This document shows, piece after piece, positions 1 to 16,232 of a DNA stretch of 64,000 nucleotides (position 1 is its first letter; every line of letters begins with the position of its first letter). Position numbers and translations under genes: made by a program. Origin of the DNA: Bacilli bacterium (GTDB taxonomy: Bacteria > Bacillota_I > Bacilli_A > RFN20 > UBA1709); contig JAXESU010000002.1 of NCBI GenBank assembly GCA_034115825.1, forward strand, positions 538,233 through 602,232. The letters are read 5' to 3'. The notes under the pieces were generated by a model. It was not told the origin of the DNA. It ran no database searches and saw only the letters and a program-made list of their open reading frames with translations.

Positions 1-1
1 T

Positions 2-841
2 GTTTGTGCGCTTTTATCAAAAGCTATAGGCAATAATCTAACTGCTATTTTTGTTAATCATGGTTTACTTCGTTTACATGAAGAAGATGAAGTAATTAAT
101 AACTTTAAAGATTTTAATTTAAACTTTAAATATGTTGATGCAAGTGAAAACTTTTTAAATAGACTTGCCGGAGTTATTGATCCAGAACAAAAACGTAAAA
201 TTATTGGTGATGAATTCATTAATGTTTTTGTAAATGAAGCTAATAAATTAGAAGGAATTAAATATTTAGCACAAGGTACTATTTATCCAGATATTATTGA
301 AAGTGGTACAAAATTCCATAAAGTTGTTAAATCTCACCATAACGTTGGTGGTCTTCCAGAAAAGTTAAACTTTAAATTAATTGAACCATTAAAAATGTTA
401 TTTAAAGATGAAGTTAGAGAAGTTGGAAGATATCTTGGTTTAAGTGATGATTTAGTCTCACGCCAACCTTTCCCAGGACCAGGACTTGGTGTTAGATGTT
501 TAAATGGTATTACAAAAGAAAAATTAAATTTATTAAAACAAGCTGACTATATTTTAAGAGAAGAAGTAAAGAAAAATAAATTAGATAAAGCTATTTGGCA
601 ATATTTCTGTGTTCTTCCATCTGTTAAAGCAGTTGGTGTAAGAAATAATAGTCGTAGCTATGAAGATGCTATTGTTATTAGAATGGTCAATAGTATTGAT
701 GCAATGAGCGCTAAATTCTATGAAATGGAATATGCTTTATTAAGACATATCTCATATCGTATTACTCATGAAGTAGTAGGTATTTCTCGTGTTTTATTAG
801 ATATTACTGATAAACCACTTGGAACAATTGAATTTGAGTAG
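2..841 (+). CDS. guaA: GMP synthase (glutamine-hydrolysing), C-terminal portion; 5-prime end lies outside the window
   Basis: Frame-2 translation from the window edge reads ...LTAIFVNHGLLRLHEEDEV...HHNVGGLPEKLNFKLIEPL...SRQPFPGPGLGVRC...ISYRITHEV..GTIEFE*. These are the ATP-pyrophosphatase and dimerisation-domain motifs of GuaA. Stop TAG at 839-841. Confidence 0.9.
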   Translation, partial: VCALLSKAIGNNLTAIFVNHGLLRLHEEDEVINNFKDFNLNFKYVDASENFLNRLAGVIDPEQKRKIIGDEFINVFVNEANKLEGIKYLAQGTIYPDIIESGTKFHKVVKSHHNVGGLPEKLNFKLIEPLKMLFKDEVREVGRYLGLSDDLVSRQPFPGPGLGVRCLNGITKEKLNLLKQADYILREEVKKNKLDKAIWQYFCVLPSVKAVGVRNNSRSYEDAIVIRMVNSIDAMSAKFYEMEYALLRHISYRITHEVVGISRVLLDITDKPLGTIEFE

Positions 842-866
842 AAATAATAATTAAAGATAAAGTATT

Positions 867-897
867 AACTATTGTAAGTCATACAACAGTTGTTTTT
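867..897 (+). terminator. weak intrinsic terminator candidate after guaA
   Basis: Hairpin aactattg / caacagtt (one mismatch) followed by GTTTTT. Confidence 0.3.
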
Positions 898-1149
898 AGT
901 ATGATTTTTATTAATTTAATATTGAAGATAAAGTTATGTATTGAATTATGATATATTATTAGTAAAGTTTTTAATTTAAAATATCGAGAATCGACATAAT
1001 ATATATTAAATAAAATTAAGTTTGAAATACAATTTGATTAGGAAAAAATTTATTTGTAAAAGTCTAGTTGTATTCAATATTCATTAAATTATTGAAAAAT
1101 AATAAATATCTTCACCCAAATGATTAAAAAACAGGAAAAGAGGGATAGC

Positions 1150-3300
1150 ATGAAAATAGATTTGCACTGTCATACTAAGAAAACTAAAAAAGGTGATCCT
1201 GATACAAGGGAAGTTGATGCCAAAACTTTTAGAGAATCTGTTTTAAGTGCAGGAGTAAAAATAGTAGCTATAACAAATCACAATGTTTTTGATATTAAAC
1301 AATATTATTCATTTGTTTCAATTGCTAGTGATGATTTTCAAGTTTGGCCAGGTATCGAACTAGACGTAGAAGGTGAAATTCAAAATGGTCATGTTATTAT
1401 TGTTAATAATCCAAAAACAGTAGGAGTTTTTGATGAAAAAGTAAAAGAATTGATTGGTGATAGAAATCCTGATGAAGTATTAATTAGTATTGATGAGTTA
1501 ATTTCTTTTTTTAGTGAATTAGATGCAATTGTATTACCGCATTATTATAAACCTAAGTCCTTAGATGAAAATTCTATAGAAAAAATTAAAGAGTCGATTA
1601 TTGATGATTATAGATTCTTTTATGAGCCAAGTAGTTATAGAACAATGGGTATTTTAATTAATCATAAACAATCTTCTTTAATGGGATCTGATGTAAAAGA
1701 TTGGAAAAAATACGATCAAAATATTTTTTCGGAATTAAAACTGGATGTTGATACTTTTGATCAGTTTATATTATTAGCTAAAAAAGATCCGATTTTAGTT
1801 GATACTTTATTACACAAGAAAAATCAAACTATGATTGATATTGGTTATAAAGGAACTGGAAAGAACAAAAAGTATTCTGTTGAGGAATACGCACCAATAT
1901 ATGATGATATAAATATTATTTTTGGAACTAAAGGAACTGGAAAAAGTAATGTGTTAGAGCAAGTTAAAAAGTATTATATATCTAAAAACATTGATTTTAG
2001 TTATTATACTCCAAACAACACAAATGATGAGATTAATTCAAAACTAAAAGTATTTGATTCAGAGAGATTATTAGAAAAGTATTCTCTAAAAAATTTTGCA
2101 AGTGAATTTGAAAAGATTTCCAATTGGACAGAAGCGTCTATTACTCAGTTAAAAGATTTCATTGATTATTCAAAGTGTACTAAAATTAGTAAGAACAAAG
2201 AAAAACTAAAAATATTAGATACCAATATTTTTCTTGATGTCAGTGAAAAAGAAATAGATAAACAAAAAAAATATTCAGAATCTTTAAATGATATTTGCTC
2301 AAAATTAGATAGTATAGAGTTAGAAAAACATCTTGATAGTACAGAAATAGAGACATTATATACTATTTTAGGCAAGATTAATTATAGTATATATTCATTT
2401 TTGAAAGAAGCATGGATTGATTATGAAACTAAAAAACATTCTAATTTTACTATTGAAATGATGAAAAAAATTGTTGAGGAAAATACAGAAACAAAAACTA
2501 AACCAAGTAAAACTGGATTGTTTGATTTTGTTAATAATAGATTAGAATTAATTATTAATGTTAATCAAGTATGTAAAGGATTTGAACATAATTTTGCTTG
2601 TTCACCTATTAAAATAGGTAAATTGGAAGAAAACAAGATTTTATATATGGTAACTAAACATAAAATGCTTGATTCAAAAAGTAAAACAGATGAATTTAAG
2701 CATAATATCACACAACTTAGAGAAACAAAAGATAATTTGTTTAAGTTACAAAAGCATCTTTTTGATGTAAATATCAATGAAATAATTAGAGAGTTAAGTG
2801 ATAATTTGACGAGTTATTCAATTTTATCACTTGATGATTTTCTTGGAGTAAAAAAGGTATTTACGTTAGAACCAACAAAATTAGATGAAATAGAAGAATA
2901 TATTCCATCTACTGGAGAAGCTACTATGATAATTTTACAGGAAAAATTGAATGATAATAAGGATGTATTTATTTTGGATGAACCGGAAAAAAGTTTAGGA
3001 AATACATATGTAAACGACATTATTGTACCTAAATTAGTAAGTTTAGCAAAATCTAGAAAAGTTATTATTGTAGTAACACATAATGCGAATATAGCAGTTC
3101 GTACTTTTCCCTATACTTCTATATTAAAAAAATACCAAGAAGGGAAATATGAAACTTTTATTGGTAATCCTTTCGTCGATAAATTAACACAAATTGGTAA
3201 TGAGAGTAATTGTTTAAATTGGAAAGAGGAAAGTATTAAGATTCTTGAGGGCGGAATACTTGCGTTTGACGAACGAGGTGAGATATATGGCAGAAAATAA
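1150..3300 (+). CDS. PHP-family metal-dependent phosphoesterase/nuclease domain fused to an ABC/AAA_21 (OLD-type) ATPase; candidate defence protein
   Basis: RBS AAGAGGGA lies 6 nt before ATG 1150 (the ORF track's ATG 1120 has no RBS). PHP motifs at the N-terminus: DLHCHT, AITNHN, GIELDV, GHVIIV, LPHYY, INHK. Walker A GTKGTGKS, preceded by a degenerate copy GYKGTGKN. About 360 aa of K/E/L-rich insertion follow, then signature-like PSTGEAT, Walker B VFILDEPE and H-loop VVTHNANI. Confidence 0.75.
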   Translation: MKIDLHCHTKKTKKGDPDTREVDAKTFRESVLSAGVKIVAITNHNVFDIKQYYSFVSIASDDFQVWPGIELDVEGEIQNGHVIIVNNPKTVGVFDEKVKELIGDRNPDEVLISIDELISFFSELDAIVLPHYYKPKSLDENSIEKIKESIIDDYRFFYEPSSYRTMGILINHKQSSLMGSDVKDWKKYDQNIFSELKLDVDTFDQFILLAKKDPILVDTLLHKKNQTMIDIGYKGTGKNKKYSVEEYAPIYDDINIIFGTKGTGKSNVLEQVKKYYISKNIDFSYYTPNNTNDEINSKLKVFDSERLLEKYSLKNFASEFEKISNWTEASITQLKDFIDYSKCTKISKNKEKLKILDTNIFLDVSEKEIDKQKKYSESLNDICSKLDSIELEKHLDSTEIETLYTILGKINYSIYSFLKEAWIDYETKKHSNFTIEMMKKIVEENTETKTKPSKTGLFDFVNNRLELIINVNQVCKGFEHNFACSPIKIGKLEENKILYMVTKHKMLDSKSKTDEFKHNITQLRETKDNLFKLQKHLFDVNINEIIRELSDNLTSYSILSLDDFLGVKKVFTLEPTKLDEIEEYIPSTGEATMIILQEKLNDNKDVFILDEPEKSLGNTYVNDIIVPKLVSLAKSRKVIIVVTHNANIAVRTFPYTSILKKYQEGKYETFIGNPFVDKLTQIGNESNCLNWKEESIKILEGGILAFDERGEIYGRK

Positions 3301-3607
3301 GTTTGTAAAAGTGAAATTAAATTGTATTGATGAGAAATATTTACTTGAGTTCAATTTATCAGAAGTTAAATCTATTAGTTTATATGATGAAAATATGGAA
3401 CAATTAAAAGAATTATTCACTCAAATTATGAAGGATTTAATCAAAAATAATTTAAAATTTAAATTAGAGATATCTGAAGAAGCTAAGAATGGCTCTAATC
3501 AATTGGCATGTGATGTCGCAATCACATATGTTGATAAATTGAACACTGAGATTGAGACATTAATTCAAACTGATAACTTAAAAGAAGTGCGAGAGCATTT
3601 TAGTTAA
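3287..3607 (+). CDS. small acidic hypothetical protein (106 aa), translationally coupled to the PHP-ATPase gene
   Basis: ATG 3287 is preceded by AGGTGA (6 nt) and overlaps the upstream stop (3298-3300) by 14 nt. MAENKFVKVKLNCIDEKYLLEF...; no recognisable motif. The upstream in-frame ATG at 3245 lies inside the ATPase gene without an RBS. Confidence 0.55.
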   Translation: MAENKFVKVKLNCIDEKYLLEFNLSEVKSISLYDENMEQLKELFTQIMKDLIKNNLKFKLEISEEAKNGSNQLACDVAITYVDKLNTEIETLIQTDNLKEVREHFS

Positions 3608-4371
3608 TTTGCTTTTTTGATTATTAGAAACTATCTATATAGACTATCATATAAGATTTAGTGAATATTATATTTTTAACGAATTTGTATGTATAAAAAT
3701 TAATAAAGTAATTATTTTTAAAAAGAAACATTTAAAATTAACTAAGCTAATTACAATATAATTATGATACTATTATTGTTAGTTTAGTGATTTTAATATG
3801 ATACTATTAGTTTGTTACAAGTATACGCATTGTAAAAAATATGTGACAAAAGTAGATGTTTTATATAGAAACAAACTTAATTTGGTTAGAGAAGATAGAA
3901 CTGTTAAGAGGGTTTGAATAGTACAATAGTATTTTATCTATTTTATGTGGTAAGTAGTTTATGGGATTGTTTGTTTTATTAAATATTTTTTAAGAATATT
4001 TATTTAAGTGCCAAAAATAAATATTAAAAAGATAAAAGTTAAGTATGAAAAAAAGTTTTACAGATGAGTTATAAGAAAATAATATGACGGTTATTTTGGG
4101 TAAAATGCTAGAATTAGAGAAAGAAAAGTATAAAGATAAACTAATAAATATAATTATATGAGTTATTGGTGGAAAAGGAGCTCTTATATCTATTGGTTTG
4201 TTATGTTATAGGTTAGTAAGAATAAACTTTTCTTAGATAGTATACTATCTACTTTATTGACATTCTTTTCGGACTTCTTTTAATACATACATTGATTATA
4301 TTGATTCAATTAATTGTATTAATGGTTCGGTTTATGGATTTAAAAAGATGAAGATATTGGAGGGATTTAAA

Positions 4372-4842
4372 ATGACAACCAAGGAAATAGTATACAAATA
4401 TGAAAAGAAAGTATTTAAAAGAGCTTTATTAACACATTTAAAACCAATTACAATTTCAACATTTAGTCAATGCTTTATTGCTATGGTTTGTGGCTTTATT
4501 TACCTTAATGCTTATATGAATAATGATATTGTTTTATTCAATATTACTGCAATACCAGCGATGATTTGCTTACTTGGGGCAGGTATTGGATTAGTAATTT
4601 ACATTATCTTTTTTAAAAATTTATTAATAACAGCATATAATTGGTCATATGATCATTACCTAACTATTGATAATAATCAAGTAGTATTATTACTAAAATC
4701 GAGTGATGGTTTAAAAGAAGAAAAATATAAATTTCCGATTAAAAAAATTAAATTGGAGAAAGATAATTATTTAATTTTTAAGAATAATAATCATTTTGTT
4801 TATGTTCCAAAAGAACTTTTTGATGCTAGTAAGCAAGATTAA
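4372..4842 (+). CDS. small membrane protein, YcxB-like (two TM helices plus a bacterial PH-like domain)
   Basis: GGAGGG lies 8 nt before ATG 4372. Hydrophobic segments FIAMVCGFIYL and AIPAMICLLGAGIGLVIYIIFF are followed by a soluble C-terminal domain. Confidence 0.55.
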   Translation: MTTKEIVYKYEKKVFKRALLTHLKPITISTFSQCFIAMVCGFIYLNAYMNNDIVLFNITAIPAMICLLGAGIGLVIYIIFFKNLLITAYNWSYDHYLTIDNNQVVLLLKSSDGLKEEKYKFPIKKIKLEKDNYLIFKNNNHFVYVPKELFDASKQD

Positions 4843-4941
4843 TTATATTAAAAATTTTGATTATTTAAGTACATATAGAAGAGTATGTAAATAGAAGTAA
4901 GTTCAAAATAATGCATAACTTAATTAGTTAAATGTAATAAT

Positions 4942-4980
4942 AAAAAACAGTTACTGTAATGTTACAGTAGCTGTTTTTTT
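4942..4980. terminator. bidirectional rho-independent terminator between the convergent YcxB-like gene and cat
   Basis: aaaaaa-CAGTTACTGTAAT-GTTACAGTAGCTG-ttttttt; a 13-bp stem with one G-T pair, flanked by an A-run and a T-run. Confidence 0.7.
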
Positions 4981-5002
4981 AACTAAATATTATCTATATA
5001 TT

Positions 5003-5623
5003 TTATTTAAAATGATTAATTAATTCTTGTAAAGTATTTATAAATTTTCCAACATGATAGCCATCACAAACAGCGTGATGAACTTGAATAGCAAGAGGGA
5101 TAAAACGTTGATTATTATTTTCAAAAAATTTGCCGAAGGTAAAAATAGGTAATAAATATTTTCCATCATTATAAATATTGATGTTAAATGATGTAAAAGT
5201 AAACCATGGAATCATCGATACATCAAACGTATTTAATGGACGATCTTTTTTTGGCTCAAATGAAGTAGTATTTAAATATTTTTTTAAATCTTGATGATAA
5301 TTTTCTAAAAACACACGATAGTCATCATTATATAAAGTATAAATTGAAGAAAAAGTTTCACTTTCTTTATTAAAAATAGTATATGCTGGATTCATTTTAT
5401 CAAAAATAACTAACTTATCATTAATTGAAGTTGTTTTAAATTCATCAATGTTATTTATTGTTTTAGTTAATAAATAAAGAAGGGTAGGATATAATTTAAA
5501 ATTTTTAAGATTAGTAATATCTAGATTAACTACTGTTGAATATGTGCAAGGACACTTTGTAGTATAATGCTTAAAGTGTTCTTTTCTTTTATAAGTATTT
5601 AAATCAATTTCTTTATAATTCAT
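5003..5623 (-). CDS. cat: type A chloramphenicol O-acetyltransferase
   Basis: MNYKEIDLNTYKRKEHFKHY...SMIPWFTFTSFNINI...PLAIQVHHAVCDGYHVGKF: the classic CAT N-terminus and the HHAVCDGYH catalytic-His motif. RBS AAAGGA lies before ATG 5623; the ORF-track extension MKERKKV has no RBS. Confidence 0.9.
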   Translation of the reverse strand: MNYKEIDLNTYKRKEHFKHYTTKCPCTYSTVVNLDITNLKNFKLYPTLLYLLTKTINNIDEFKTTSINDKLVIFDKMNPAYTIFNKESETFSSIYTLYNDDYRVFLENYHQDLKKYLNTTSFEPKKDRPLNTFDVSMIPWFTFTSFNINIYNDGKYLLPIFTFGKFFENNNQRFIPLAIQVHHAVCDGYHVGKFINTLQELINHFK

Positions 5624-6656
5624 AACTTTTTTCCTTTCTTTCAATGCTATTTATATAACAGTTTAATTCCTTAAAAGTAAGATTAGCAGGTAAGTGATTA
5701 AATATTGTAGTAGGACTATTTTTCCCGCCACGAAGGCTAATATAATAATCAATAATTGATTCTTTAGCTTCGTTTAATGAGGAATACTCATGAATTCCTT
5801 TTGTTTCACTATTTGCGGTTTCAAGATGATAATATTTATTATTTAATTTATAAATAACAAAGCAATGCATGTGTTCATTTTCATCAAAGTTATTAAATGT
5901 TTCATCTTCGTAAATTCGACAACAATATAAATAGTTTTTAACTTTTATTTTGTTAAGCAAATAGTGAATTAAATAAGCTTGTTCAATACAAGTTCCACAT
6001 CTATATTTAAAAATTGCTTTTAAAGACATTGTTCGATAAAGAAGACGGAAACCTTTCATTTCTTTATTACTATGATAAATTTTATTGTTATCAATAAAAC
6101 CATAACTAATATTATTGCTAATAAAATTATAAATATCTCTTGGAGTTTTAATATTTTCAATTTTATTATAAAAAGAAGGAGAATAGTCAAAGGAGATACG
6201 TTTATCACCATTTGCTAAATAAATGGTTCCACATTGTTTAAATCCATAATTAAAGAGTGCTTTTTGCATTACTAAATTGTCTTTGTGAGTATCGATTCGT
6301 AAATAATTACATTTAGTTAGACAATAGTTAAAAATCTTTCTTGTAATATTAGGTATATTTGATTTTTTAGCAACTTTATGAATGACTCCATATTGCTCAT
6401 TTTTATTCCAGTTTCCTTCAATATAATCGTAGGTTGGATCATTAGTTATCGCAAAAGAAAAGCAGGCTTCAATATTATCATTTTCCTTTAAAATATATAA
6501 AATTTTCTTTTTTATATCATTTAAGATCATTTCTTTAGTCGGATATCCTTTTTGCCATTGATTAATATTGTTTGTTATAACCATAAAGTTTTGGGCATAT
6601 ACATATATTTCCATGATTTTATCAATATCTTTTTTAGTTGCTTTTTTAATAATCAT
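5613..6656 (-). CDS. fusion protein: N-terminal GNAT acetyltransferase plus a C-terminal papain-fold Cys-His-Asp/Glu domain (arylamine-NAT-like / transglutaminase-like)
   Basis: N-terminal approx. 150 aa GNAT-like (MIIKKATKKDIDKIMEIY...IHKVAKKSN..ITRKIFNYCL). C-terminus YRCGTCIEQAYLIHYLL (R-x-G-x-C-x-E, as in the NAT RGGYCFE motif), HMHCFVIY, YHLETAN. Stop overlaps the cat start by 11 nt. A TATAAT -10 box lies immediately upstream, and GGTGA before ATG 6656. Confidence 0.65.
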   Translation of the reverse strand: MIIKKATKKDIDKIMEIYVYAQNFMVITNNINQWQKGYPTKEMILNDIKKKILYILKENDNIEACFSFAITNDPTYDYIEGNWNKNEQYGVIHKVAKKSNIPNITRKIFNYCLTKCNYLRIDTHKDNLVMQKALFNYGFKQCGTIYLANGDKRISFDYSPSFYNKIENIKTPRDIYNFISNNISYGFIDNNKIYHSNKEMKGFRLLYRTMSLKAIFKYRCGTCIEQAYLIHYLLNKIKVKNYLYCCRIYEDETFNNFDENEHMHCFVIYKLNNKYYHLETANSETKGIHEYSSLNEAKESIIDYYISLRGGKNSPTTIFNHLPANLTFKELNCYINSIERKEKSYEL

Positions 6657-6790
6657 TTTTATCACCATTTATTATTATACCTTAATTTATTTAATGTATT
6701 AAATAATATTTACAATTTTATACTCATTTACTATAATAGATATAATTACTATCGACAAAAGTAATTAGTTAGAAAGAAGGAAGTAAAATT

Positions 6791-7891
6791 ATGAATAAGT
6801 ATTATGATAATTTTGAAATCACATCTTTAGACACAGAAATTTTAGAAGAAAAAGATGGCTATTATGTTTTTAAAGACACTATTTTTTATGGTGAAAAAGG
6901 TGGAATGCCAAGTGATGAAGGAACAATTAATGGTTTAGAAGTAGTTGAATTAAAATATGATGGTGACACTTTACTTCATAAAGTAAATGGAACTTTAACT
7001 AATCCAATTCATATGGAAGTTAATAAAGAAGTACGTGAAATTAACACTTCTGTTCAAACAGCTTTCCATATTTTAGATGGTTACTATGCTAAAAGAGGTC
7101 AATATTTACCTGCTGTAGGAGTTCATCCAAATAATCAATGGTTTGAAGTAAATAGTAAAGATATTACTAAAGAAGATTTAATGGAAGTTCAAGAATTTAT
7201 GAACAAAGTTATTGATGATGATGTTAAAGTTACTTTTGAGTACATTAATGGAAAAGATTACTATAATGAAAAGTATCAACATTATGATTTAGTACGTATT
7301 GTTAATATTGGTGATTTAGATAGTCAACCATGTGGAACTCTTCATCTAAATCATACTTCACAAATTAAAAGTTTTGTTATTTTAGACTTTGAAAAAACAA
7401 GTAAAGGTACAAGAGTTTATACTTGTGTAAATAAAGTTTGTGATGAACATTTAAAAAATTATTATAATTTATTAAAAGAAACAGGTAAAATTTTAGGTGT
7501 TAAAAAAGAAGAAGTAATTGAAAAAGCTAGTGAAGTAACTGCTTCCAATAAAGCTTTAAAGAAAGAAGTTCAAGATCTTAAAAAAGAATTGATGGATTTA
7601 AAAGCTAACTCCATTTTACAAGACGAAAATTTAATGTATAAGTATGAAACTAGTGATGCTAATGATTTACGTCTAATTGGTCAAAGTTTAATGAATCGTG
7701 TAAATGGTAATAAAATAGTTTATGCCTTAATTAATGATGAAATTAACTTTGCAATTGTTTCTTCAAGCAATGAAGCTCGTAATTATTTAGAAAAAGTTAA
7801 AACTTTAGGCAATGTCATTGGTGGAGGTTCTCCTAAAATTGTTACTGCTAAAGTAAAAGCAAATGAAGAAGACTTCTTAAATTTATTTTAG
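6791..7891 (+). CDS. alaX: AlaX-L type alanyl-tRNA editing protein (AlaRS editing-domain homologue with a DHHA1-like C-terminus)
   Basis: Zn motifs VQTAFHILDG and QPCGTLHLNHT (HxxxH ... CxxxH), a coiled-coil linker, and C-terminal GNVIGGGSP like the AlaRS C-terminal domain. Confidence 0.7.
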   Translation: MNKYYDNFEITSLDTEILEEKDGYYVFKDTIFYGEKGGMPSDEGTINGLEVVELKYDGDTLLHKVNGTLTNPIHMEVNKEVREINTSVQTAFHILDGYYAKRGQYLPAVGVHPNNQWFEVNSKDITKEDLMEVQEFMNKVIDDDVKVTFEYINGKDYYNEKYQHYDLVRIVNIGDLDSQPCGTLHLNHTSQIKSFVILDFEKTSKGTRVYTCVNKVCDEHLKNYYNLLKETGKILGVKKEEVIEKASEVTASNKALKKEVQDLKKELMDLKANSILQDENLMYKYETSDANDLRLIGQSLMNRVNGNKIVYALINDEINFAIVSSSNEARNYLEKVKTLGNVIGGGSPKIVTAKVKANEEDFLNLF

Positions 7892-7895
7892 TAAT

Positions 7896-7927
7896 TAAGT
7901 GAACTAATATTAGTTCACTTTTTTGTT
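7896..7927 (+). terminator. intrinsic terminator after alaX
   Basis: AAGTGAACTA-atat-TAGTTCACTT followed by TTTTTGTTT. Confidence 0.65.
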
Positions 7928-7964
7928 TAATGTGAAAGTTTTAACAACTTTGTGAAAAAACTTA

Positions 7965-8019
7965 TTGAAAAGCACAATATCTTTTTTTATAATATAAATG
8001 TAAGTCAAACTGACATTTA
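7965..8019 (+). promoter_or_regulatory. sigma-A-type promoter (TTGAAA-17-TATAAT) plus an imperfect 25-bp palindrome between -10 and RBS; likely TetR operator
   Basis: TTGAAA 7965-7970, TATAAT 7988-7993. TAAATGTAAGTCAAACTGACATTTA at 7995-8019 (symmetric except for 2 positions). Confidence 0.5.
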
Positions 8020-8039
8020 TTACAAAGGAGATTATAATT

Positions 8040-8657
8040 ATGTCTTTATTAGATGTTCGCAATCAAAATATTGAAAAAGTTACTAAAGAAGCTTTAAAGA
8101 TGTTTGTAAGTAAAGGAATAGAGAATAGTAAAGTAAGTGATATTGCTAAAAATTGTGATTTAGCAGAGCGCTCATTATTTCGATATTTTCCGACTAAAGC
8201 TGATTTAGTATTAGCGGCAGCAAAGTTGTTTTGGCATGAAATGGTTAAAAATTCATATAATGTATTAACTCAAATCGATAATTCTTTAGATGGTATTGAT
8301 CAACTATCAATTGTTGTCAAAACTTATGCCCATCAATTTTTTGATAATAAAGAAAAATTAATATTTGTTCAAGAAAGTGAAGTTTATTTATATCGATATA
8401 ATAAAGGAATATTAAATCCTGTTGATTTATTAAATAATCAAGATGCTCCTATGTATCAAGTGATACAAAAAGGAGTTAAAGATGGTTCAATAAAAAATCA
8501 AAATATTGAAGAATTATATCTAATAGTTTATGACAGTTTATTAGGGTTTATGCAAAAAATGGCTACAGGAATATATGCTAAATCACTAAGTAAAGCTGAA
8601 CAATTGCAATATTTAAATCTTTTTTGTGAAATGTTAGTTAATTCATTTAGAAAATAA
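8040..8657 (+). CDS. TetR/AcrR family transcriptional regulator
   Basis: N-terminal HTH: VSDIAKNCDLAERSLFRYFPTKADL. RBS AAAGGAG. Confidence 0.8.
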   Translation: MSLLDVRNQNIEKVTKEALKMFVSKGIENSKVSDIAKNCDLAERSLFRYFPTKADLVLAAAKLFWHEMVKNSYNVLTQIDNSLDGIDQLSIVVKTYAHQFFDNKEKLIFVQESEVYLYRYNKGILNPVDLLNNQDAPMYQVIQKGVKDGSIKNQNIEELYLIVYDSLLGFMQKMATGIYAKSLSKAEQLQYLNLFCEMLVNSFRK

Positions 8658-8670
8658 AGGAGAGGAAAAA

Positions 8671-10206
8671 ATGAATAATGTATATGATTGCATCATTATT
8701 GGTGGAGGTAATGGTGGACTTGCTAGTTGTGCCACATTAGCTAAAGAAGGTAAAAAAGTTATTTTATTTGAAAAACATAATATTCCCGGTGGATGTGGGA
8801 CAAGTTTTAGAAGGGGACGTTTTGAGTTTGAAGTTGCCCTACATCAATTAAGTAGTATGGGTACAAAAGAAAAACCAGGACCTTTAAGAGAACAATTTAG
8901 ACGTTATGGTATTGAAGATCAAATTGATTGGATTGAAATAAAAGAATTATTTAGAGTTAATTTTCCTGATGGAACTGGTGTTAGTTTACCTGCTGATAAA
9001 GAAAAATGTATTGATTTTTTAAGTAAAGAATTCCCTAATGAAAAAGAAAATATTAAACGTTATTTTGATGTTGTTTATAAGTTTTGTTTTGAAGCTAATG
9101 ATTTTGCAAGCAAAAGTGCTAAAAGTAGTAAAGAACCAAATGCCCTTAAAAAAGGTGTAATGAAATTTGCTTTCCCTAAAAAATATAAAACTTTAGCTAA
9201 TTATGGTCTAAAATCAACTCAAGAAGTTTTAGATGAATTTTTTAAAGATCAAAAATTACAATTAGCTTTAAGTGCATATTGGTGCTTTATGGGAGTTCCA
9301 CCTAAACGTTTCCCGTTTTCGATTTTAGCTAAATGTACGTGTTTTTATTTAGAAGATAAACCATTTTATTTAAAAGGAACATCAATGATGATGAACCAAG
9401 CTATTATGGATGCAAGTATTAAAATGGGGGCAACTGTTAAACTTAATTGTGGTGTTAAAAAGATTATCGTTAAAAATAATGAAGCTGTTGGAGTTGTTTT
9501 AGAAAATGGCGAAAAATATTATGCTAAAAAAATTATTTCTAATATTTCTCCATTACATACTTATGGAGCTTTGATGGATAAAGAAGATGTACCAGAAAGC
9601 GCTCGAGAATATTTAAAACCATATACAGTTGGTATTAGCGCATTAACATGTTTTATTGGTTTAGATTGTCCACCGAGTGAAATTGGTTTTAAAACATCAT
9701 TTACATTAAATTATAAGTCGATGGATGCTAACAATGATTTTAAAGATGCTTATAAATTATTACCGGAAAATGATCCACTTGTAGCTACTTGTTATACGGT
9801 TGATGATGAAAGTGTTTCACCAAAAGGAACGAGTGTTATTACAGCAGGTGTTTTAAAATATGCAACTGAATGGGAAAAATTAACAGCTGAACAATATTAT
9901 GAAGCTAAATATGAAGCTGGTAAACGAATCGTAGACCGACTTGAAGAAATGTATCCAGGATTTAAGAGTCATATTGAAGAAATGGAAATTGCTACTCCAT
10001 TAACTCATATGCGCTATTTAAACCATCCAGGAGGCGCAATTTATGGCTATGAACAAGACTTAAATCAATCAGTCTTTTTCTTTCCATCTGAAAGTAAAAT
10101 TAAAAATTTAGAATTTGCTAGTGGCTGGGTTAATGCTTGTGGATTTGGGCCTAACTATATGTATGCTGATAAAATTGCATTAAAAGTAGCAAAGGAGATT
10201 AAATAA
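8671..10206 (+). CDS. FAD-dependent oxidoreductase of the phytoene-desaturase / NAD(P)-FAD amine-oxidase-like family
   Basis: DCIIIGGGNGGLASCATLAKEGKKVILFEKHNIPGGCGTSF: dinucleotide-binding GxGxxG followed by the GG motif. Confidence 0.75.
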   Translation: MNNVYDCIIIGGGNGGLASCATLAKEGKKVILFEKHNIPGGCGTSFRRGRFEFEVALHQLSSMGTKEKPGPLREQFRRYGIEDQIDWIEIKELFRVNFPDGTGVSLPADKEKCIDFLSKEFPNEKENIKRYFDVVYKFCFEANDFASKSAKSSKEPNALKKGVMKFAFPKKYKTLANYGLKSTQEVLDEFFKDQKLQLALSAYWCFMGVPPKRFPFSILAKCTCFYLEDKPFYLKGTSMMMNQAIMDASIKMGATVKLNCGVKKIIVKNNEAVGVVLENGEKYYAKKIISNISPLHTYGALMDKEDVPESAREYLKPYTVGISALTCFIGLDCPPSEIGFKTSFTLNYKSMDANNDFKDAYKLLPENDPLVATCYTVDDESVSPKGTSVITAGVLKYATEWEKLTAEQYYEAKYEAGKRIVDRLEEMYPGFKSHIEEMEIATPLTHMRYLNHPGGAIYGYEQDLNQSVFFFPSESKIKNLEFASGWVNACGFGPNYMYADKIALKVAKEIK

Positions 10207-11369
10207 TGAAAAAGGGAATTAAAGAAACATTACTAGGAACACTAGTACATGGAAAAGAAGTTTTAAATAATATAGATGTCTTACGTAAAACAAGTAATGA
10301 TAAAATTGTTGAATATAATTTAGCTGATAATGTTATTAATAAATTACATCAAAAAGAATTACATTTAGTTGTTAATGAAATAATTGATACTCATAAAAAT
10401 GCTAAAATATTTCGTTTAGTAAGTGAAGATAATTACTTACCTCCTTTTGAAGCAGGGCAATATATTAATTTATTTGTTGAGATTGATGGAGTTTATACAT
10501 CTAGACCATATAGTATTTCTTCATCACCACTTCAAAGAGCTTATTATGAAGTTACTATTGCAAGAGTTAATGATGGATTTGTTTCTTCTTACTTTTTAGA
10601 TAAAGTTAAAGTAGGTGATAAATTAATTGCTAATGGTCCAAGTGGAGTATTTCATTATAATAAAGTATTTCATTCACCTAAAGCACTTTTTATTGCTGGT
10701 GGTAGTGGAATTACACCATTTATGTCAATGTTACGTGAAATTTTAAGCGCTAAACATGACCGTGATGTTGTTTTACTTTACGGTTGTCCAGAACTTAAAA
10801 ATGCCTTATATCATGATGAATTAACATATTTAAGTAAAACATATAATAACTTTAAATATCATTTAGTTTTATCAAATGAAGTTAATAAAGATTATGAGCA
10901 TGGATTTATTTCTAAAGAATTAATTACTAAATTAGTTAAAGATTATAATGAAAGAACTAGTTATATTTGTGGGCCACAAGTTATGAATGCTTTTGTCGAA
11001 AGTAATTTAAAAGAATTAAATGTACCACTTAAACAGATTCGAAGAGAAATGTTTTCATCAAATAAAAATGTTATTAAAGAAGAAGGTTTCCCTAAATCAT
11101 TAACGGGGGAAGAAGTATTTAATGTTAAAGTAAATGACCAAATGATAAAAGCTAAAGCAAATGAATCATTATTAGTTGCTTTAGAAAGAAACCATATTAG
11201 AGTTAATGTATGCTGCCGAAGTGGGGAATGTAGTTTATGTAGAGTAAAACTTGTTAAAGGTAAAGTATATTTAGCAAAAGGTATTTTACTACGTAAAGCT
11301 GATGAAAAATTTGGTTATATTCATTCTTGTAAAGCTTATCCATTAACTGATCTTGAAATTATGTTATAA
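10206..11369 (+). CDS. ferredoxin-NAD(P) reductase-type oxidoreductase with a C-terminal plant-type 2Fe-2S ferredoxin domain
   Basis: RPYSISS (FAD-binding RxYS), GGSGITPF (NAD-binding), CCRSGECSLCRV...C (2Fe-2S). Start overlaps the upstream stop. Confidence 0.75.
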   Translation: MKKGIKETLLGTLVHGKEVLNNIDVLRKTSNDKIVEYNLADNVINKLHQKELHLVVNEIIDTHKNAKIFRLVSEDNYLPPFEAGQYINLFVEIDGVYTSRPYSISSSPLQRAYYEVTIARVNDGFVSSYFLDKVKVGDKLIANGPSGVFHYNKVFHSPKALFIAGGSGITPFMSMLREILSAKHDRDVVLLYGCPELKNALYHDELTYLSKTYNNFKYHLVLSNEVNKDYEHGFISKELITKLVKDYNERTSYICGPQVMNAFVESNLKELNVPLKQIRREMFSSNKNVIKEEGFPKSLTGEEVFNVKVNDQMIKAKANESLLVALERNHIRVNVCCRSGECSLCRVKLVKGKVYLAKGILLRKADEKFGYIHSCKAYPLTDLEIML

Positions 11370-11399
11370 AGTAAGTGACAAGGTTCACTTACTTTTTTA
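11369..11399 (+). terminator. intrinsic terminator after the reductase gene
   Basis: AGTAAGTGA-caagg-TTCACTTACT followed by TTTTTT. Confidence 0.65.
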
Positions 11400-11400
11400 A

Positions 11401-11442
11401 TTGACAAAAATTAATAATCTTGATAAAATGAACATTGTTCAT
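11401..11442 (+). promoter_or_regulatory. promoter TTGACA-17-TAAAAT with a 15-bp perfect palindrome operator overlapping -10/+1
   Basis: TTGACA 11401-11406, TAAAAT 11424-11429, ATGAACATTGTTCAT at 11428-11442. Confidence 0.6.
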
Positions 11443-11457
11443 ATTGGTGGTGAGAAG

Positions 11458-12009
11458 ATGAATAAACAAGTTATTAGTAAAGAAAAAATTATTGAAATTA
11501 GTAAAGAAATGATTGCTCAAGATGGTTTTAATAGTATCAGTATTCGATCAATAGCCGAAAAAGGTAATGTTTCGATTGGGGTTATCTATAACTATTTTCA
11601 AAATAAAGATGAAATATTAATGGCAACAATCGAAGCCATTTTTAAAGAAATAGGTAAAGAATTATTACTTAATGATGATATTTCATTTATAAAGATGGTT
11701 AATGATATTTTTAATACTTTTAAAAATGGTAGTAATAAATATCCTAATTTTTTCTCCTTGCATACGTTAATGATTTCTTCAAATGAACGTCAAAAAGGAA
11801 GAGAAGTAATGAATGATTATTTTAAAGAATTAAAAAAACATTTATTAAAGTGTCTTAATAATGATTTAGATGTTAATCAGTCAATATTTAATAATCTAGA
11901 TAAAGAAAAGTATGTTGATTTTGTTTTTACTAATATTTTAAGTTTATTAATCAATCATGAAAATAATTGTGAAGTATTACTTTTTTCAATTAAACACACT
12001 ATTTATTAA
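11458..12009 (+). CDS. TetR family transcriptional regulator
   Basis: GGTGGTGAGAAG precedes ATG 11458. HTH: ISIRSIAEKGNVSIGVIYNYFQNKDE. The ORF-track start at 11401 would begin inside the promoter. Confidence 0.75.
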   Translation: MNKQVISKEKIIEISKEMIAQDGFNSISIRSIAEKGNVSIGVIYNYFQNKDEILMATIEAIFKEIGKELLLNDDISFIKMVNDIFNTFKNGSNKYPNFFSLHTLMISSNERQKGREVMNDYFKELKKHLLKCLNNDLDVNQSIFNNLDKEKYVDFVFTNILSLLINHENNCEVLLFSIKHTIY

Positions 12010-12028
12010 TGCTCATTGAGCATTTTTA
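12009..12028 (+). terminator. short hairpin plus T-run after the TetR gene (partial terminator/attenuator)
   Basis: ATGCTCA-tt-GAGCAT followed by TTTTT. Confidence 0.4.
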
Positions 12029-12040
12029 AATGAACAAATA

Positions 12041-12053
12041 TGAACAATGTTCA
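12041..12053 (+). promoter_or_regulatory. second copy of the TetR operator palindrome upstream of the membrane-protein gene
   Basis: TGAACAATGTTCA is a perfect 13-bp palindrome with the same half-sites as 11428-11442. It sits 25 nt before RBS AGGAGG / ATG 12078. Confidence 0.55.
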
Positions 12054-12077
12054 CTTTGCTTGATAGGAGGTATATAT

Positions 12078-12740
12078 ATGCAAGGAATTATTGAAACTAT
12101 TTTCGATGTTTGTTACCTTACATTAGTAATTAGTATTGGTATTTTAATGATCGTTAAAAGTAAAGGAAACAAACAATATTTATTATTTGGAATTATGGCT
12201 GTTACTCTAGGATTTGGTGATTCATTTCACCTTGTTCCAAGAATGATTGCTCTTTTAACTACTGGTTTAGATAGTTATACCAAAGCCTTAGGTATAGGTA
12301 AATTTATTACTTCAATTACGATGACTATTTTCTATGTAATTTTATATTATGTTTATCGATTACGTTATAAGGTAAAAGGTCAATTAACAACGACAATTTT
12401 AGTATATGGATTAGCGATAATTAGAATTATTTTATGTTTATTCCCACAAAATGAGTGGTTAAGTGCTTCTCAACCTTTAAGTTGGGGTATTTATCGAAAT
12501 ATTCCATTCGCTTTACTTGGTATCCTAATTATTGTGTTATTTTTTAGAGGAAGTCGTAAACATCAAGATAGTAACTTTAAATGGATGTATTTAACAATTG
12601 TTCTAAGTTTTGCCTTTTATCTTCCAGTTGTTTTATTTGCTGATGTTTATCCATTAATTGGAATGTTAATGATTCCTAAAACATGTGCTTATGTTTGGAC
12701 AGTATTAATTGGTTATTTTGATATGAAAGCAGTGAAGTAG
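12078..12740 (+). CDS. polytopic membrane protein (6-7 predicted TM helices), function unknown
   Basis: AGGAGG precedes ATG 12078 (MQGIIETIF...). The ORF-track ATG 12030 lacks an RBS and overlaps the operator. Confidence 0.6.
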   Translation: MQGIIETIFDVCYLTLVISIGILMIVKSKGNKQYLLFGIMAVTLGFGDSFHLVPRMIALLTTGLDSYTKALGIGKFITSITMTIFYVILYYVYRLRYKVKGQLTTTILVYGLAIIRIILCLFPQNEWLSASQPLSWGIYRNIPFALLGILIIVLFFRGSRKHQDSNFKWMYLTIVLSFAFYLPVVLFADVYPLIGMLMIPKTCAYVWTVLIGYFDMKAVK

Positions 12741-12741
12741 G

Positions 12742-13152
12742 ATGAAAAAATATTTTAAAATTGCCTTTATTTATTTAATTTTAGTCTTAGTTAGTGGTGT
12801 CTTTTATCGTGAATTTACAAAATTTAATCAATTTGATGGTAAAACAACTTTAGCAGTTACTCATTTACATTTCTTTGTTTTAGGTACATTATTTTTCTTG
12901 ATTTTAGCCTTAATAAATAATATTATTGATCTTCAACATCATAAATTATATAAGCCATTTATGATTTGTTATAATATAGGACTTCCATTAATGGTTATTA
13001 TGTTTTATGTAAGAGGTATTATTCAAGTCTTAGAAGTCAATATTTCTAGTTCTATTTCATCAATGATTTCAGGATTTGCAGGTATTGCTCATATTTTAGT
13101 TGGAGTATCATTAATTTTTATTTTTACTATTTTAATAAAAAAAGCAAAATAA
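12742..13152 (+). CDS. small membrane protein (4 TM helices), function unknown
   Basis: Hydrophobic throughout; start 2 nt after the upstream stop. Confidence 0.6.
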   Translation: MKKYFKIAFIYLILVLVSGVFYREFTKFNQFDGKTTLAVTHLHFFVLGTLFFLILALINNIIDLQHHKLYKPFMICYNIGLPLMVIMFYVRGIIQVLEVNISSSISSMISGFAGIAHILVGVSLIFIFTILIKKAK

Positions 13153-13216
13153 ACTCTTTTAAAAGGGTTTATTTTTTTGTATTTATGATAAAATAAAATT
13201 ATCGAGGTGAAGTTTT

Positions 13217-14206
13217 ATGAAAATTGGAATAATGGGTGCTGGTAAAATTGCTCATACAATGGCAAAGACAATTGTAAATATGCATGATAATAATATTATT
13301 TTAGAAGCAATTGGATCACGAAACATTCGAAAAGCTCAAGAATTTCAAAATCAATATAATATTAAAAAAGCATATGGAAGTTATTTGGATTTAGTTAATG
13401 ATAATGATTTAGATTTAATTTATATAGCGACACCTCACTCCGAGCATTTTAATAATGCTAATTTATGTTTGGACCATAATAAACATTGTTTAATCGAAAA
13501 ACCAATGTGCGTTAATTATAAAGAAGCAAAATATTTATTTGATAAAGCAAACCAAAAAGGACTATTATTAACTGAAGCAATTTGGACAAGATATATGCCA
13601 TCAGCCAAGTTTTTTAAGCAAATAATTGCATCACAAATTATTGGGGAAGTAAATAGTGTTGAAGCAAGTTTAGGATATAATTTAGTCAATGTTCCTCGAC
13701 TAAATGATCCTTATTTAGCCGGTGGAGCATTATTGGATGTTGGTATTTATCCACTGACATTTGCGTGTTTAGTTTTTAATTCATTACCGATTTTTGTCGA
13801 TGGCAATTGTGTTAAAACTAAAAACAATTTAGATGCAAGTGATAATATAACTTTAATTTTTGAAAATAATAAAATAGCCTGTTTACATGCAACAATGATT
13901 TCGAAAACTAGTCGAAAGGGTTTTATTTATGGTAGCAAAGGTTATTTAGTTGTTGATAACATTAATAATCCTTCTAAAGTAAGTCATTATGATAATGATG
14001 ATCATTTAATTAATGAACTTAGTTTCCCTAAACAAATAACTGGTTTTGAATATCAAATTTTAGAATGTTTCGATGCTATTAACAACAAACACCTTGAATG
14101 TCAAAGTGTTAAACAAATTGAAGTTTTAACAATTATGCAAACAATGGATACTCTAAGAAAAAAATGGGGAATTATTTATCCATTTGAAAAGGAGGAAGAT
14201 TTATGA
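13217..14206 (+). CDS. Gfo/Idh/MocA family NAD(P)-dependent oxidoreductase
   Basis: MKIGIMGAGKIAHTMAKT...EKPM. Confidence 0.8.
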   Translation: MKIGIMGAGKIAHTMAKTIVNMHDNNIILEAIGSRNIRKAQEFQNQYNIKKAYGSYLDLVNDNDLDLIYIATPHSEHFNNANLCLDHNKHCLIEKPMCVNYKEAKYLFDKANQKGLLLTEAIWTRYMPSAKFFKQIIASQIIGEVNSVEASLGYNLVNVPRLNDPYLAGGALLDVGIYPLTFACLVFNSLPIFVDGNCVKTKNNLDASDNITLIFENNKIACLHATMISKTSRKGFIYGSKGYLVVDNINNPSKVSHYDNDDHLINELSFPKQITGFEYQILECFDAINNKHLECQSVKQIEVLTIMQTMDTLRKKWGIIYPFEKEEDL

Positions 14207-14793
14207 TTATTACCGTAAGCCGAGAATTTGGGGCTTCAGGAAGAGAAGTTGCTAAACTTTTAGCAAAAGAATTAAATTATCAATATTTTGATAAAGAAAT
14301 TTTAAAGGAAACAAGTAAAGTAAGTGGATTATGTTTAGATTATTTAGATAAACAAGATGAGAAAAGTTTTAATAGTTTTTTATCTTCACTTATGTCATCA
14401 ACTAGTGCTATAAATGGCAAAGAATCAATGGAAGACATTATTTTAAAAGCTAATAAAGAAGCAATTATTAATATTGCTAATAAAGATAATGTTGTTATTG
14501 TTGGCCGTTGTGCTGATTATATTTTAAAAGATTATAGTAATGTACTACGTGTATTTATTGTTGCAAATGATGAATATCGTATTAGTCATGTTGCTAGTCG
14601 CGATAATTTAACTTTAATTGAAGCGAGTAAAAAAATCCGTAAAATGGATAAAATTAGAGCTAATTATTATCAAAATTATACTGATGCAACTTTTGGTGAT
14701 CCAAGTAATTATGATTTATGTTTAAATGTTGCTTCCTTAGGCAAAGAAAAGGTTGTTAAGATAATTAAAAAATTAGTCAAAGGAGAAGAATAA
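14203..14793 (+). CDS. cytidylate kinase-like family protein
   Basis: MIITVSREFGASGREVAKLLAKELNYQYFDKEIL; 4-nt overlap with the upstream gene. Confidence 0.75.
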   Translation: MIITVSREFGASGREVAKLLAKELNYQYFDKEILKETSKVSGLCLDYLDKQDEKSFNSFLSSLMSSTSAINGKESMEDIILKANKEAIINIANKDNVVIVGRCADYILKDYSNVLRVFIVANDEYRISHVASRDNLTLIEASKKIRKMDKIRANYYQNYTDATFGDPSNYDLCLNVASLGKEKVVKIIKKLVKGEE

Positions 14794-15566
14794 TGAAAAT
14801 AGGTTTTATAGGTTTTGGTAATATGGCGAGTGCCATTTGTGAAGGTTTAATTAAAAGTGGATTTAATAGCAATGATATTTATGCTTCAAGTCTACATTAT
14901 GATAAATTAATCCAAAGAACAAATAAATATCACATTAATCCTTTAAAAGATAATAATAGTGTTGCTAAAACTTGTGATGTTATTATTTTAGGAGTTAAGC
15001 CATTTCAAATGGAACAAGTTATTAATGAAATAAGTGATAATTTAAATAATCAATTAATTATTTCCATTGCTGCTAGTTTTACTTTTAATAGTTTAATTAA
15101 GTTATTTAATAAAAAAGTAAATCTTGTTGTAACAATTCCTTCAACTCCAATTGCTAGTTTAGAAGGAATAACTATTTGTGATCAAAAGACGAGTTTAACT
15201 AAGACACAATTAGAAACATTTCTTTCTTTATTCTCTAAAATGGGTTTAGTCGAGTTTGTTAGTGAAGATAAATTAGATATTGCATCAACATTAAGTGGAT
15301 GTGGACCAGCTTTTATTAGTATGGTAATTGAATCACTTAGTGATGCTGGAGTAAAACATGGATTAACTTATGAAGAAAGTTTTCGTTTAGTAAGTAAAAT
15401 GGTTTTAGGTAGTGCTAAAAAATGTTTAGAAACAAAAACTCATCCGGCTATTTTAAAAAATGAAGTATGTTCTCCTAAAGGAACGACAATTAAAGGTGTT
15501 GCAAAACTTGAAGAGTTAGGACTTAGAAATGCTTTTATTAAAGCGATAGATGAAATAGTTGGATAA
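14793..15566 (+). CDS. proC: pyrroline-5-carboxylate reductase
   Basis: MKIGFIGFGNMASAICEGL...ILGVKPFQ...GCGPAFI...SPKGTTIKGV. Confidence 0.85.
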   Translation: MKIGFIGFGNMASAICEGLIKSGFNSNDIYASSLHYDKLIQRTNKYHINPLKDNNSVAKTCDVIILGVKPFQMEQVINEISDNLNNQLIISIAASFTFNSLIKLFNKKVNLVVTIPSTPIASLEGITICDQKTSLTKTQLETFLSLFSKMGLVEFVSEDKLDIASTLSGCGPAFISMVIESLSDAGVKHGLTYEESFRLVSKMVLGSAKKCLETKTHPAILKNEVCSPKGTTIKGVAKLEELGLRNAFIKAIDEIVG

Positions 15567-15596
15567 AAAAGGAGTAAAATGCTCCTTTTATTTTTC
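15565..15596. terminator. bidirectional terminator between proC and the convergent TetR gene
   Basis: aaaaAAGGAG-taaaatg-CTCCTT-ttattttt. Confidence 0.6.
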
Positions 15597-16145: not shown

Positions 16146-16160
16146 TTTTATTATACTATA

Positions 16161-16218
16161 TTGACAATAAAAATAGTAGGTATTACTATTATATTAGATA
16201 GTCGGTCAAACAACCGAC
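16161..16218 (+). promoter_or_regulatory. candidate promoter plus an inverted-repeat operator for the glpA-like operon
   Basis: TTGACA 16161-16166, -10 TACTAT. Inverted repeat GTCGGT-caaaca-ACCGAC at 16201-16218, just upstream of RBS AAGGTGA. Confidence 0.4.
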
Positions 16219-16232
16219 AAGAAGGTGAAAAT

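Follow-up and report, generated by a model that had tools for sequence, protein, structure and literature searches.

The 64,000-nucleotide stretch of DNA analysed here (positions 538,233 to 602,232 of the forward strand of contig JAXESU010000002.1, GenBank assembly GCA_034115825.1, from a Bacilli bacterium; hereafter, the window) is AT-rich, with a GC content of about 27%. Near its 5′ end it carries a compact pair of genes on the forward strand. The first gene (1150..3300, +) encodes a protein of 716 amino acids (aa) in which a PHP phosphoesterase/nuclease domain is joined to an ABC/SMC-like ATPase. The second gene (3287..3607, +) encodes a small acidic protein of 106 aa with an isoelectric point (pI) of 4.8, and it overlaps the stop of the large gene by 14 nucleotides (nt). 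A preliminary description of this DNA had singled out the pair as a candidate defence module. We found that the cassette is best called a widespread, uncatalogued two-gene relative of Ppl, a protein that restricts phages, and that the conservation and surroundings of its relatives strongly suggest a defence function.

The open reading frame (ORF) called for the large gene runs from 1120 to 3300. However, nearly all of the 22 homologues that we aligned (38-93% identity) start at MKIDLHCHT, and we therefore place the true start at the ATG at 1150, which gives the 716-aa product. The Shine-Dalgarno sequence AAGAGGG (1138-1144, +), as read from the sequence, lies 5 nt before this ATG. The small gene has a Shine-Dalgarno sequence of its own, GAGGTGA (3275..3281, +), within the 3′ end of the large gene and 5 nt before the ATG at 3287. 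The acidic ORF, its ribosome-binding site and the 14-nt overlap are thus as the preliminary description had given them.

The PHP domain occupies residues 1-222 (1150..1815, +). Its putative metal ligands are H6, H8, D16, H44, E70, H81, H131 and D181; all are invariant in the 22 homologues except at position 16, which is always D or E. In an AlphaFold2 model built from the family alignment (mean predicted local distance difference test score, pLDDT, 88.6), residues 1-222 form a beta/alpha barrel. Foldseek searches of the PDB matched the N-terminus to the PHP proteins RNase AM 7ug9 (E 8.9e-6, template-modelling score 0.65 on the target) and BAD_1165 3e0f (3.4e-6), and further PHP matches were Cv1693 2yb1 and V. 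cholerae RNase AM 9etk. These matches, together with Pfam PF02811 in 5/22 family members, identify the (beta/alpha)7-barrel of the PHP fold, and on the window protein NCBIfam finds a CehA/McbA PHP-type metallohydrolase domain (1.9e-5). RNase AM/TrpH (YciV) is the best structural match and the sole sequence match for this domain, and the order H-x-H, D, H, E, H is shared. When a PHP-only profile was aligned with RNase AM 9etk, the first six ligands fell on H-x-H, D, T-D-H, G-I-E and H, in what is a weak match (E 0.19). RNase AM and TrpH are stand-alone housekeeping enzymes that act on RNA 5′ ends or nucleotides, whereas the PHP domain in the window is fused to an ATPase and lacks the histidine of the final D-x-H. 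The fold matches and the invariant ligands uphold the N-terminal PHP domain proposed earlier, and the motifs that had been listed for it are correct, apart from 'INHK', which is not conserved in the homologues.

The remainder of the protein displays the features of an ABC/SMC-like ATPase: a Walker A motif, a signature, a Walker B motif, a D-loop and an H-loop, with an insert between the lobes. In the AlphaFold2 model the N-lobe spans residues 226-300, a mostly helical insert residues 300-560, and the C-lobe residues 561-716. The Walker A motif or P-loop, GTKGTGKS (residues 259-266; 1924..1947, +), has invariant residues at G259 and K261-K265 and aligns with the P-loop of AriA. The signature-like PSTGEAT (residues 586-592; 2905..2925, +), invariant at P586, S587, G589 and E590, aligns with 'SSGE' of AriA. 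It is followed by the Walker B motif VFILDEPE (residues 606-613; 2965..2988, +) and the D-loop SLGN, where L609-E613, G617 and N618 are invariant. The H-loop VTHN (residues 642-645; 3073..3084, +), with T643-N647 invariant, opens a C-terminal signature, THNAN...LEGG..AF..R..Y, that is common with Ppl and its relative TrlF. The ABC-type ATPase of the preliminary description thus stands, with a spacing between Walker A and Walker B of 345 residues and not the approximately 360 given there. Based on these motifs, we infer that both enzymatic halves, PHP and ATPase, are active.

For the ATPase part, the structure and profile searches point to the same class. Foldseek matched it to the heads of RecN, SMC, JetC, the retron-IA (PtuA) ATPase, AriA and Rad50 in the PDB, and the nearest solved protein by sequence profile was AriA of the PARIS system (E 8e-7). 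There was no solved Ppl structure among the listed matches of either the Foldseek or the sequence-profile searches against solved structures. Pfam recognised ABC_tran in 10/22 and AAA_21 in 5/22 family members. The label 'OLD-type' used in the preliminary description holds in so far as this is an ABC-type ATPase with an insert; it is loose, since the closest matches are AriA and the SMC/RecN heads. The insert itself (residues 300-560; 2047..2829, +) had been described as probable coiled coil. It is mainly helical in the model, with helices at 367-388, 397-445 and 457-477, the longest of which (397-445) has 49 residues. The modelled insert is thus a short arm rather than a long SMC-type coiled coil. 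A loop at the tip of the arm, TETKTKPSxTGF (residues 444-456; window 2479-2517), is as conserved as the ATP-binding motifs and could be a site that binds DNA or a partner.

The small gene sets this family apart from Ppl. We took 88 loci of this family, 87 of which could be evaluated for co-occurrence of a small ORF. In 87/87 of these, the large gene gives way at its end to an ORF of 76-130 aa, and the two overlap in 85/87; when the first ATG is taken as the start, 43 loci show an overlap of exactly 14 nt. An iterated search with hidden Markov models (HMMs) indicated that all 87 small ORFs are homologous. The partner is also found in both full-length plasmid copies and in all four evaluable viral contigs from IMG/VR. 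Because the pair recurs in every evaluable locus, its association is beyond chance. The two proteins also diverge together: the pairwise identities of the large and small proteins from 75 loci correlate with a Mantel r of 0.94, and 0/2000 permutations gave a value as high. Compared with a 93%-identical relative, the large gene has a ratio of nonsynonymous to synonymous substitution rates (dN/dS) of 0.12 and the small gene one of 0.16, which indicates that both genes are under purifying selection. The preliminary description had asked whether the small ORF is conserved next to PHP-ATPases in other genomes, and these data answer that it is.

The small protein matches no model in Pfam, NCBIfam or PADLOC; its sequence is 100% identical to that of a protein from a 'Bacilli bacterium' metagenome-assembled genome. 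Clustering at 90% identity divides its family into 1171 groups, none of which has a name or a Pfam domain. An exhaustive search yielded 385 clusters at 50% identity; among the best 150 of these, almost every entry is a protein of about 100 aa that stands alone, and in none of the 150 is the small protein fused to the large subunit. The family is acidic throughout (median pI 4.6, range 4.2-5.7), and the AlphaFold2 model of the small protein has a mean pLDDT of 87.5. Taken together, the conservation data indicate that the small ORF is a real, obligate partner of the PHP-ATPase and is always made as a separate polypeptide. There are a few exceptions to the usual size. Proteins of 200-240 aa (P0284, P0324 and P0326) carry the small-protein domain at one end and could be either gene-calling read-throughs or real fusions with something else; one repetitive protein of 2883 aa is an outlier.

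How is this pair related to known systems? Ppl was reportedly found in the Gao et al. 2020 defence screen. To our knowledge, PHP nucleases form the basis of few defence systems, of which Ppl is one, and how it is regulated has been outlined only recently. Its counterpart in NCBIfam is the 'TrlF family AAA-like ATPase'. The Ppl protein of E. coli restricts phages (PMC12904381). It is reviewed as a single-stranded DNA 3′-5′ exonuclease that is inhibited by nucleoside triphosphates (NTPs) bound to both domains, and that is activated by nucleotide depletion together with 3′-OH ends produced by phage homing endonucleases (PMC12904381). TrlF, as found on a Y. ruckeri plasmid, is a 900-aa protein encoded by a single gene next to an Abi gene. 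Its best PADLOC match is Ppl, and thus TrlF and Ppl are close. A literature search for 'TrlF' returned only unrelated matches.

The window protein resembles Ppl/TrlF in having an N-terminal PHP domain followed by an ABC-type ATPase in one polypeptide. BLASTP and hhalign place collinear anchors at the N-terminus of the PHP domain, at the P-loop and over the whole C-lobe; the THNAN and LEGG..AF..R..Y tail motifs occur in both, and both are found on mobile elements beside defence genes. However, Ppl/TrlF proteins are about 900 aa long, whereas the window protein has 716 aa and is about 185 residues shorter in the middle. Ppl/TrlF is also encoded by a single gene, and the Y. ruckeri TrlF has no small downstream ORF, whereas the window's family always has its partner. 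No part of TrlF matched the small-protein profile when the two were aligned in a Rosetta-stone test. The PADLOC model for Ppl (PDLC02208) scored 27.4 bits on the window protein (E 2.2e-7), covering only residues 570-652 in the Walker B region, and the NCBIfam model for TrlF (NF045780) scored 79.7 bits against a cut-off of 350 (2e-22, best stretch 2-101). Membership in Ppl/TrlF was rejected because both full-length family models failed and because this is not a single-gene system. The relation to Ppl that had been proposed is therefore real and collinear, and it is also distant: the window protein is a remote homologue of Ppl/TrlF that lies nearer to another branch, PDC-M49.

PDC-M49 is a two-gene phage-defence candidate in PADLOC, composed of FAM_00021 followed by FAM_01695 or FAM_02682 (Payne et al., bioRxiv 10.1101/2024.01.29.577857). 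In the literature we found no main-text mention of PDC-M49 or of a two-gene PHP-ATPase system; it is listed only in a candidate table in the supplements of a preprint from the PADLOC group. PDC-M49A was the best PADLOC match for the window protein, over its full length, at 98 bits (E 1.3e-28), compared with 1273 bits for a true member, the 680-aa PHP-ABC ATPase of plasmid pEc378 from E. casseliflavus. When the two large proteins were aligned by hhalign, the probability was 99.6% (E 3e-24) over 615 columns at 24% identity. The gene order is also alike, with the large gene followed on the same strand by an overlapping acidic ORF of about 100 aa: the overlap is 14 nt in the window and 20 nt on pEc378, where the small protein has 94 aa and a pI of 4.3 and matches PDC-M49B (3e-40). 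Thus, a two-gene layout is not unprecedented, because it has already been predicted for this sister clade.

The two are nonetheless different. The clades of the window's family all reach no more than 95-130 bits with the PDC-M49A models, which by these scores sets the family apart as a separate clade. The window's partner gave no match to the PDC-M49B model at E <= 10, nor did any of 30 family members, and an hhalign comparison with the true PDC-M49B protein detected no relation (probability 0.1%). These results indicate that the window protein is a closer, end-to-end homologue of PDC-M49A than of Ppl/TrlF, while still being only a distant sister. They also indicate that the small acidic partner of the window's branch either differs from PDC-M49B or has diverged beyond recognition. 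The PHP-ABC-ATPase superfamily would then have at least three branches: the solo Ppl/TrlF proteins, PDC-M49 with its own small acidic partner, and the larger branch to which the window's pair belongs.

More remote systems share parts of this design. AriA of PARIS, the closest solved structure by sequence and also a structural match, is an ABC ATPase; it has a short arm and, as part of a defence system, controls a nuclease. In PARIS, however, the Toprim nuclease AriB is a protein of its own, set free on triggering, whereas the window's PHP-type nuclease shares a polypeptide with the ATPase, and the small protein encoded beside it has no catalytic motifs. Lamassu (LmuB, the small LmuC and the LmuA effector) and Wadjet also combine an SMC/Rad50-like head with a small non-enzymatic subunit. 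The window's family differs from them in lacking long coiled coils and a third effector gene, and its similarity to LmuC is at noise level (matches in 4/30 partner proteins, best E 0.0039).

The family is widespread. We scanned a collection with a single genome per species (185,579 species) and found at least 490 matching loci among the species representatives, in Bacillota, Actinomycetota, Bacteroidota, Pseudomonadota, Verrucomicrobiota, Saccharibacteria and other groups, and in one archaeal metagenome-assembled genome. No copy among the species-representative matches listed was more than 47% identical to that of the window. The phage genomes of INPHARED contained no match. There was no conserved third gene among 401 flanking proteins, where the largest cluster had 6 members. 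The patchy distribution, the variable neighbours and the transfer across hosts of different GC content argue against a housekeeping SMC/RecN/SbcC protein, which the preliminary description had named as a finding that would refute its reading.

At many loci the pair has defence genes beside it. Single loci were found with type III restriction-modification and GmrSD, with type I restriction-modification and T5orf172, with LlaJI restriction-modification and Vsr, with DpnII restriction-modification and Hachiman, and with a methyltransferase and NOV_C. On a Photobacterium plasmid the pair is next to Eco57I-type and BsuBI/PstI restriction-modification genes. At another locus Eco47II restriction-modification, Vsr and DUF6602 adjoin the pair within an element that carries TnpV, an integrase and Mob_Pre; the pair is thus cargo of an integrative mobilisable element in one locus, as it is of plasmids. 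PADLOC matches among 143 immediate neighbours included REase I, IIG and III, TIR-TM, HEC-05, HEC-06, MkoC, AbiL, PbeA, RmrA and BrxL. The defence and mobile-element context suspected from the single sequence is therefore seen beside the homologous pairs.

The clearest case of mobility comes from three independent assemblies (loci L091, L092 and L093), in which the cassette lies directly 3′ of guaA, the same position that it has in the window. The match to the window is confined to 1086-3630. At the 5′ side, 93% DNA identity to L091 starts exactly at 1086, with no alignment upstream, and includes the leader and presumed promoter region (1086..1149, +); at the 3′ side, 91% identity continues through 3608..3630 (+) and stops at 3630. 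The L091 host has 51-63% GC up to the guaA stop, the cassette there has 27% GC, and the GuaA proteins of the two hosts are only 55% identical. A 93%-identical, 27%-GC cassette in a host of 55-57% GC, with such a distant guaA, indicates recent horizontal transfer between very different bacteria. The region 3′ of guaA looks like a hotspot shared by hosts with distant guaA genes.

In L091, positions 1-5647 are high-GC host DNA, and 5648-20372, directly 3′ of guaA, form a mosaic island of 25-45% GC. The island contains the cassette, BrxL_N fragments, two copies of the insertion sequence (IS) IS110, Dcm with a MutH-like gene and Vsr, and a KAP NTPase. One IS110-family element (L091:8429-10047, also in L092 and L093) is inserted at the gene junction, at the window equivalent of 3283/3284, 3 nt before the small ATG. 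This insertion removes the last codons of the large gene, leaving 714 aa, and uncouples the small gene. Two further loci (L105:3139-3687 and L106:3075-3623) have an intact 93%-identical pair followed by a 182-aa protein that consists only of a BrxL_N domain; the window lacks this gene, and in L091 it is broken into two parts.

Plasmids carry more divergent versions. The S. aureus plasmid p17Sau58 (L108:3938-6407) and about 10 similar plasmids have a divergent, overlapping pair of 725 aa and 100 aa that adjoins IS257, a mer operon and an Fst toxin gene. The small protein of p17Sau58 falls in the partner family of the window (hhalign probability 97%), and its 725-aa protein matched neither the PDC-M49A nor the Ppl model. 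On E. faecium pKO1 (L109:2642-4969) the large gene is broken into three short ORFs and the 102-aa small ORF downstream is intact; this copy is probably decaying.

Based on these findings, we propose that this self-contained cassette of two genes defends its host cell against phages or other invading DNA, and we regard this defence-nuclease model as a whole as reasonably probable. The heads of two large subunits would dimerise around nucleotide, as in other ABC/SMC proteins, and nucleotide binding would hold the PHP nuclease off in healthy cells. A change linked to infection, such as the appearance of free DNA ends and/or a fall in the NTP pool, would switch the PHP domain on. The activated domain would then digest invading nucleic acid from its ends, as has been reviewed for E. 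coli Ppl (PMC12904381). The small protein, made in a fixed ratio through translational coupling, would be bound to the large one in the same fixed proportion and would serve as a regulatory subunit. It may act as a restraint or adaptor that covers a nucleic-acid-binding or head surface until the trigger arrives; this is the weakest step of the model, and we offer it tentatively. In a more specific version, which we think rather improbable, the surface with which the PHP-ATPase binds nucleic acid would be occupied by the small acidic protein, which would resemble a DNA mimic and serve as a 'safety catch' or bait that can dissociate. Its removal, by the ends of phage DNA or by a phage protein with affinity for DNA mimics or acidic decoys, would unleash the nuclease. 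If true, this would be a guard mechanism not described for Ppl or for any ABC-ATPase defence system, and it might explain why the partner is never fused to the enzyme.

Several observations weigh against a role as a DNA-degrading defence system. The window protein itself is below the Pfam threshold for PHP, and Pfam gives only a sub-threshold ATPase_2 match. The ninth canonical PHP ligand, the histidine of the final D-x-H, is absent (the sequence there is GSDVKDW), and therefore the substrate may be DNA, RNA or a nucleotide. The closest structural relatives of the PHP domain are an RNA exonuclease and a nucleotide phosphatase, with no DNase among them. The immediate neighbours of the cassette in the window are guaA, a small membrane protein and cat, none of which is a defence gene, and the defence genes next to the homologues are tallied as occurrences at individual loci. 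PDC-M49, too, is a 'guilt-by-embedding' candidate only (bioRxiv 10.1101/2024.01.29.577857).

The pair could instead be a toxin-antitoxin-like addiction module that keeps plasmids and islands in the cell, the large PHP-ATPase being the toxin and the small acidic protein the antitoxin. Its two genes overlap and form a compact, mobile unit; the partner is a small acidic protein without enzymatic features; and the plasmid copies lie beside Fst and Hok toxins, IS257/IS1216 and recombinases. However, the majority of copies lie on chromosomes, where restriction-modification and other defence systems predominate among the neighbours. The putative antitoxin would be encoded downstream of its toxin and coupled to it, the reverse of most type II pairs. 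Moreover, in L091-L093 the large ORF remains near full length (714 aa) with IS110 between the two genes, a state that should not be tolerated if the protein were an unrestrained toxin. We consider addiction unlikely, and note that it and a defence role are not mutually exclusive. It is only slightly more plausible that the target is plasmids or other non-viral DNA, as for Wadjet or Lamassu, so that the system would be anti-plasmid or anti-conjugation and not directed at phages. The resemblance of the ATPase to SMC, RecN, JetC and Rad50 heads would fit such a role, as would the faint LmuC matches in 4/30 partners (best E 0.0039), were these not at noise level. The arm, with its longest helix of 49 residues, is short, unlike that of loop-extruding SMC complexes, and the nearest relative to have been tested, Ppl, restricts phages.

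The same structural matches to repair ATPases and to RNase AM might suggest a housekeeping enzyme for nucleic-acid repair or processing, RecN/SbcCD-like or RNase AM-like, with an accessory subunit. This is very improbable given how the family is distributed: its at least 490 loci in the 185,579-species collection are patchy and scattered over phyla, there is no conserved synteny, a 27%-GC copy has recently moved into a genome of 55% GC, and no copy among the species-representative matches listed exceeds 47% identity to the window's. Finally, since Ppl and TrlF are single genes, the 106-aa ORF might have been a chance reading frame beside a single-gene Ppl. A homologue in 87/87 loci, a dN/dS of 0.16, the 1171 clusters, the confident AlphaFold2 model (pLDDT 87.5) and the ORF's own Shine-Dalgarno sequence leave this explanation with almost no probability; the conservation data refute it. 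The defence-nuclease model is the reading that we carry forward.

Many bioinformatic candidates of this kind exist. Here the family is large, compact and mobile, with an invariable acidic partner: it comprises at least 490 species-level loci and more than 1,200 protein clusters in many phyla, and no dedicated model for either protein was matched in Pfam, NCBIfam or PADLOC. Knowing what the small subunit does would reveal how a nuclease that could harm its own cell is held in check, and whether infection is sensed in different ways by single-gene Ppl and by the two-gene forms. As the cassette is short (2.5 kb) and self-contained, and evidently works in very different hosts, it should be easy to clone and test.

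The surroundings of the cassette in the window also correspond to the preliminary description. Upstream, the guaA stop is at 841. A truncation of guaA was suspected from the ORF list and was ruled out by translation, which showed the gene to be intact and to run off the 5′ end of the window. The spacer between guaA and the large gene (842-1149) is 308 bp, or 278 bp when counted to the alternative ATG at 1120, in keeping with the 280 bp given previously. Promoter-like sites in a consensus scan were fewer than in shuffled sequence, so that there is no excess and no promoter is established. The sequence scan found no terminator-like site, Rfam had no match across window positions 1-9000, and a search for att-like flanking repeats gave only short AT-rich chance matches, none of which would explain an insertion. 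A look-up of a protein encoded beside the cassette in the window, aimed at presence/absence polymorphism, returned no record. Downstream, a non-coding stretch (3608-4347) has the 740 bp reported before and no ORF of at least 50 aa; it matches nothing in Rfam and does not resemble the island of the related contigs. It is followed by an ORF for a membrane-like protein of 164 aa (4348-4842). The cat gene for chloramphenicol acetyltransferase, which had been placed next to the pair, lies one ORF further on (5003-5644, -), and it overlaps by 32 nt the end of a 351-aa ORF without a Pfam match (5613-6668, -). Beyond these is a gene for an AlaX-like editing protein (6791-7891), and the stretch that separates it from the cassette, with the 164-aa ORF, cat and the 351-aa ORF, looks accessory.

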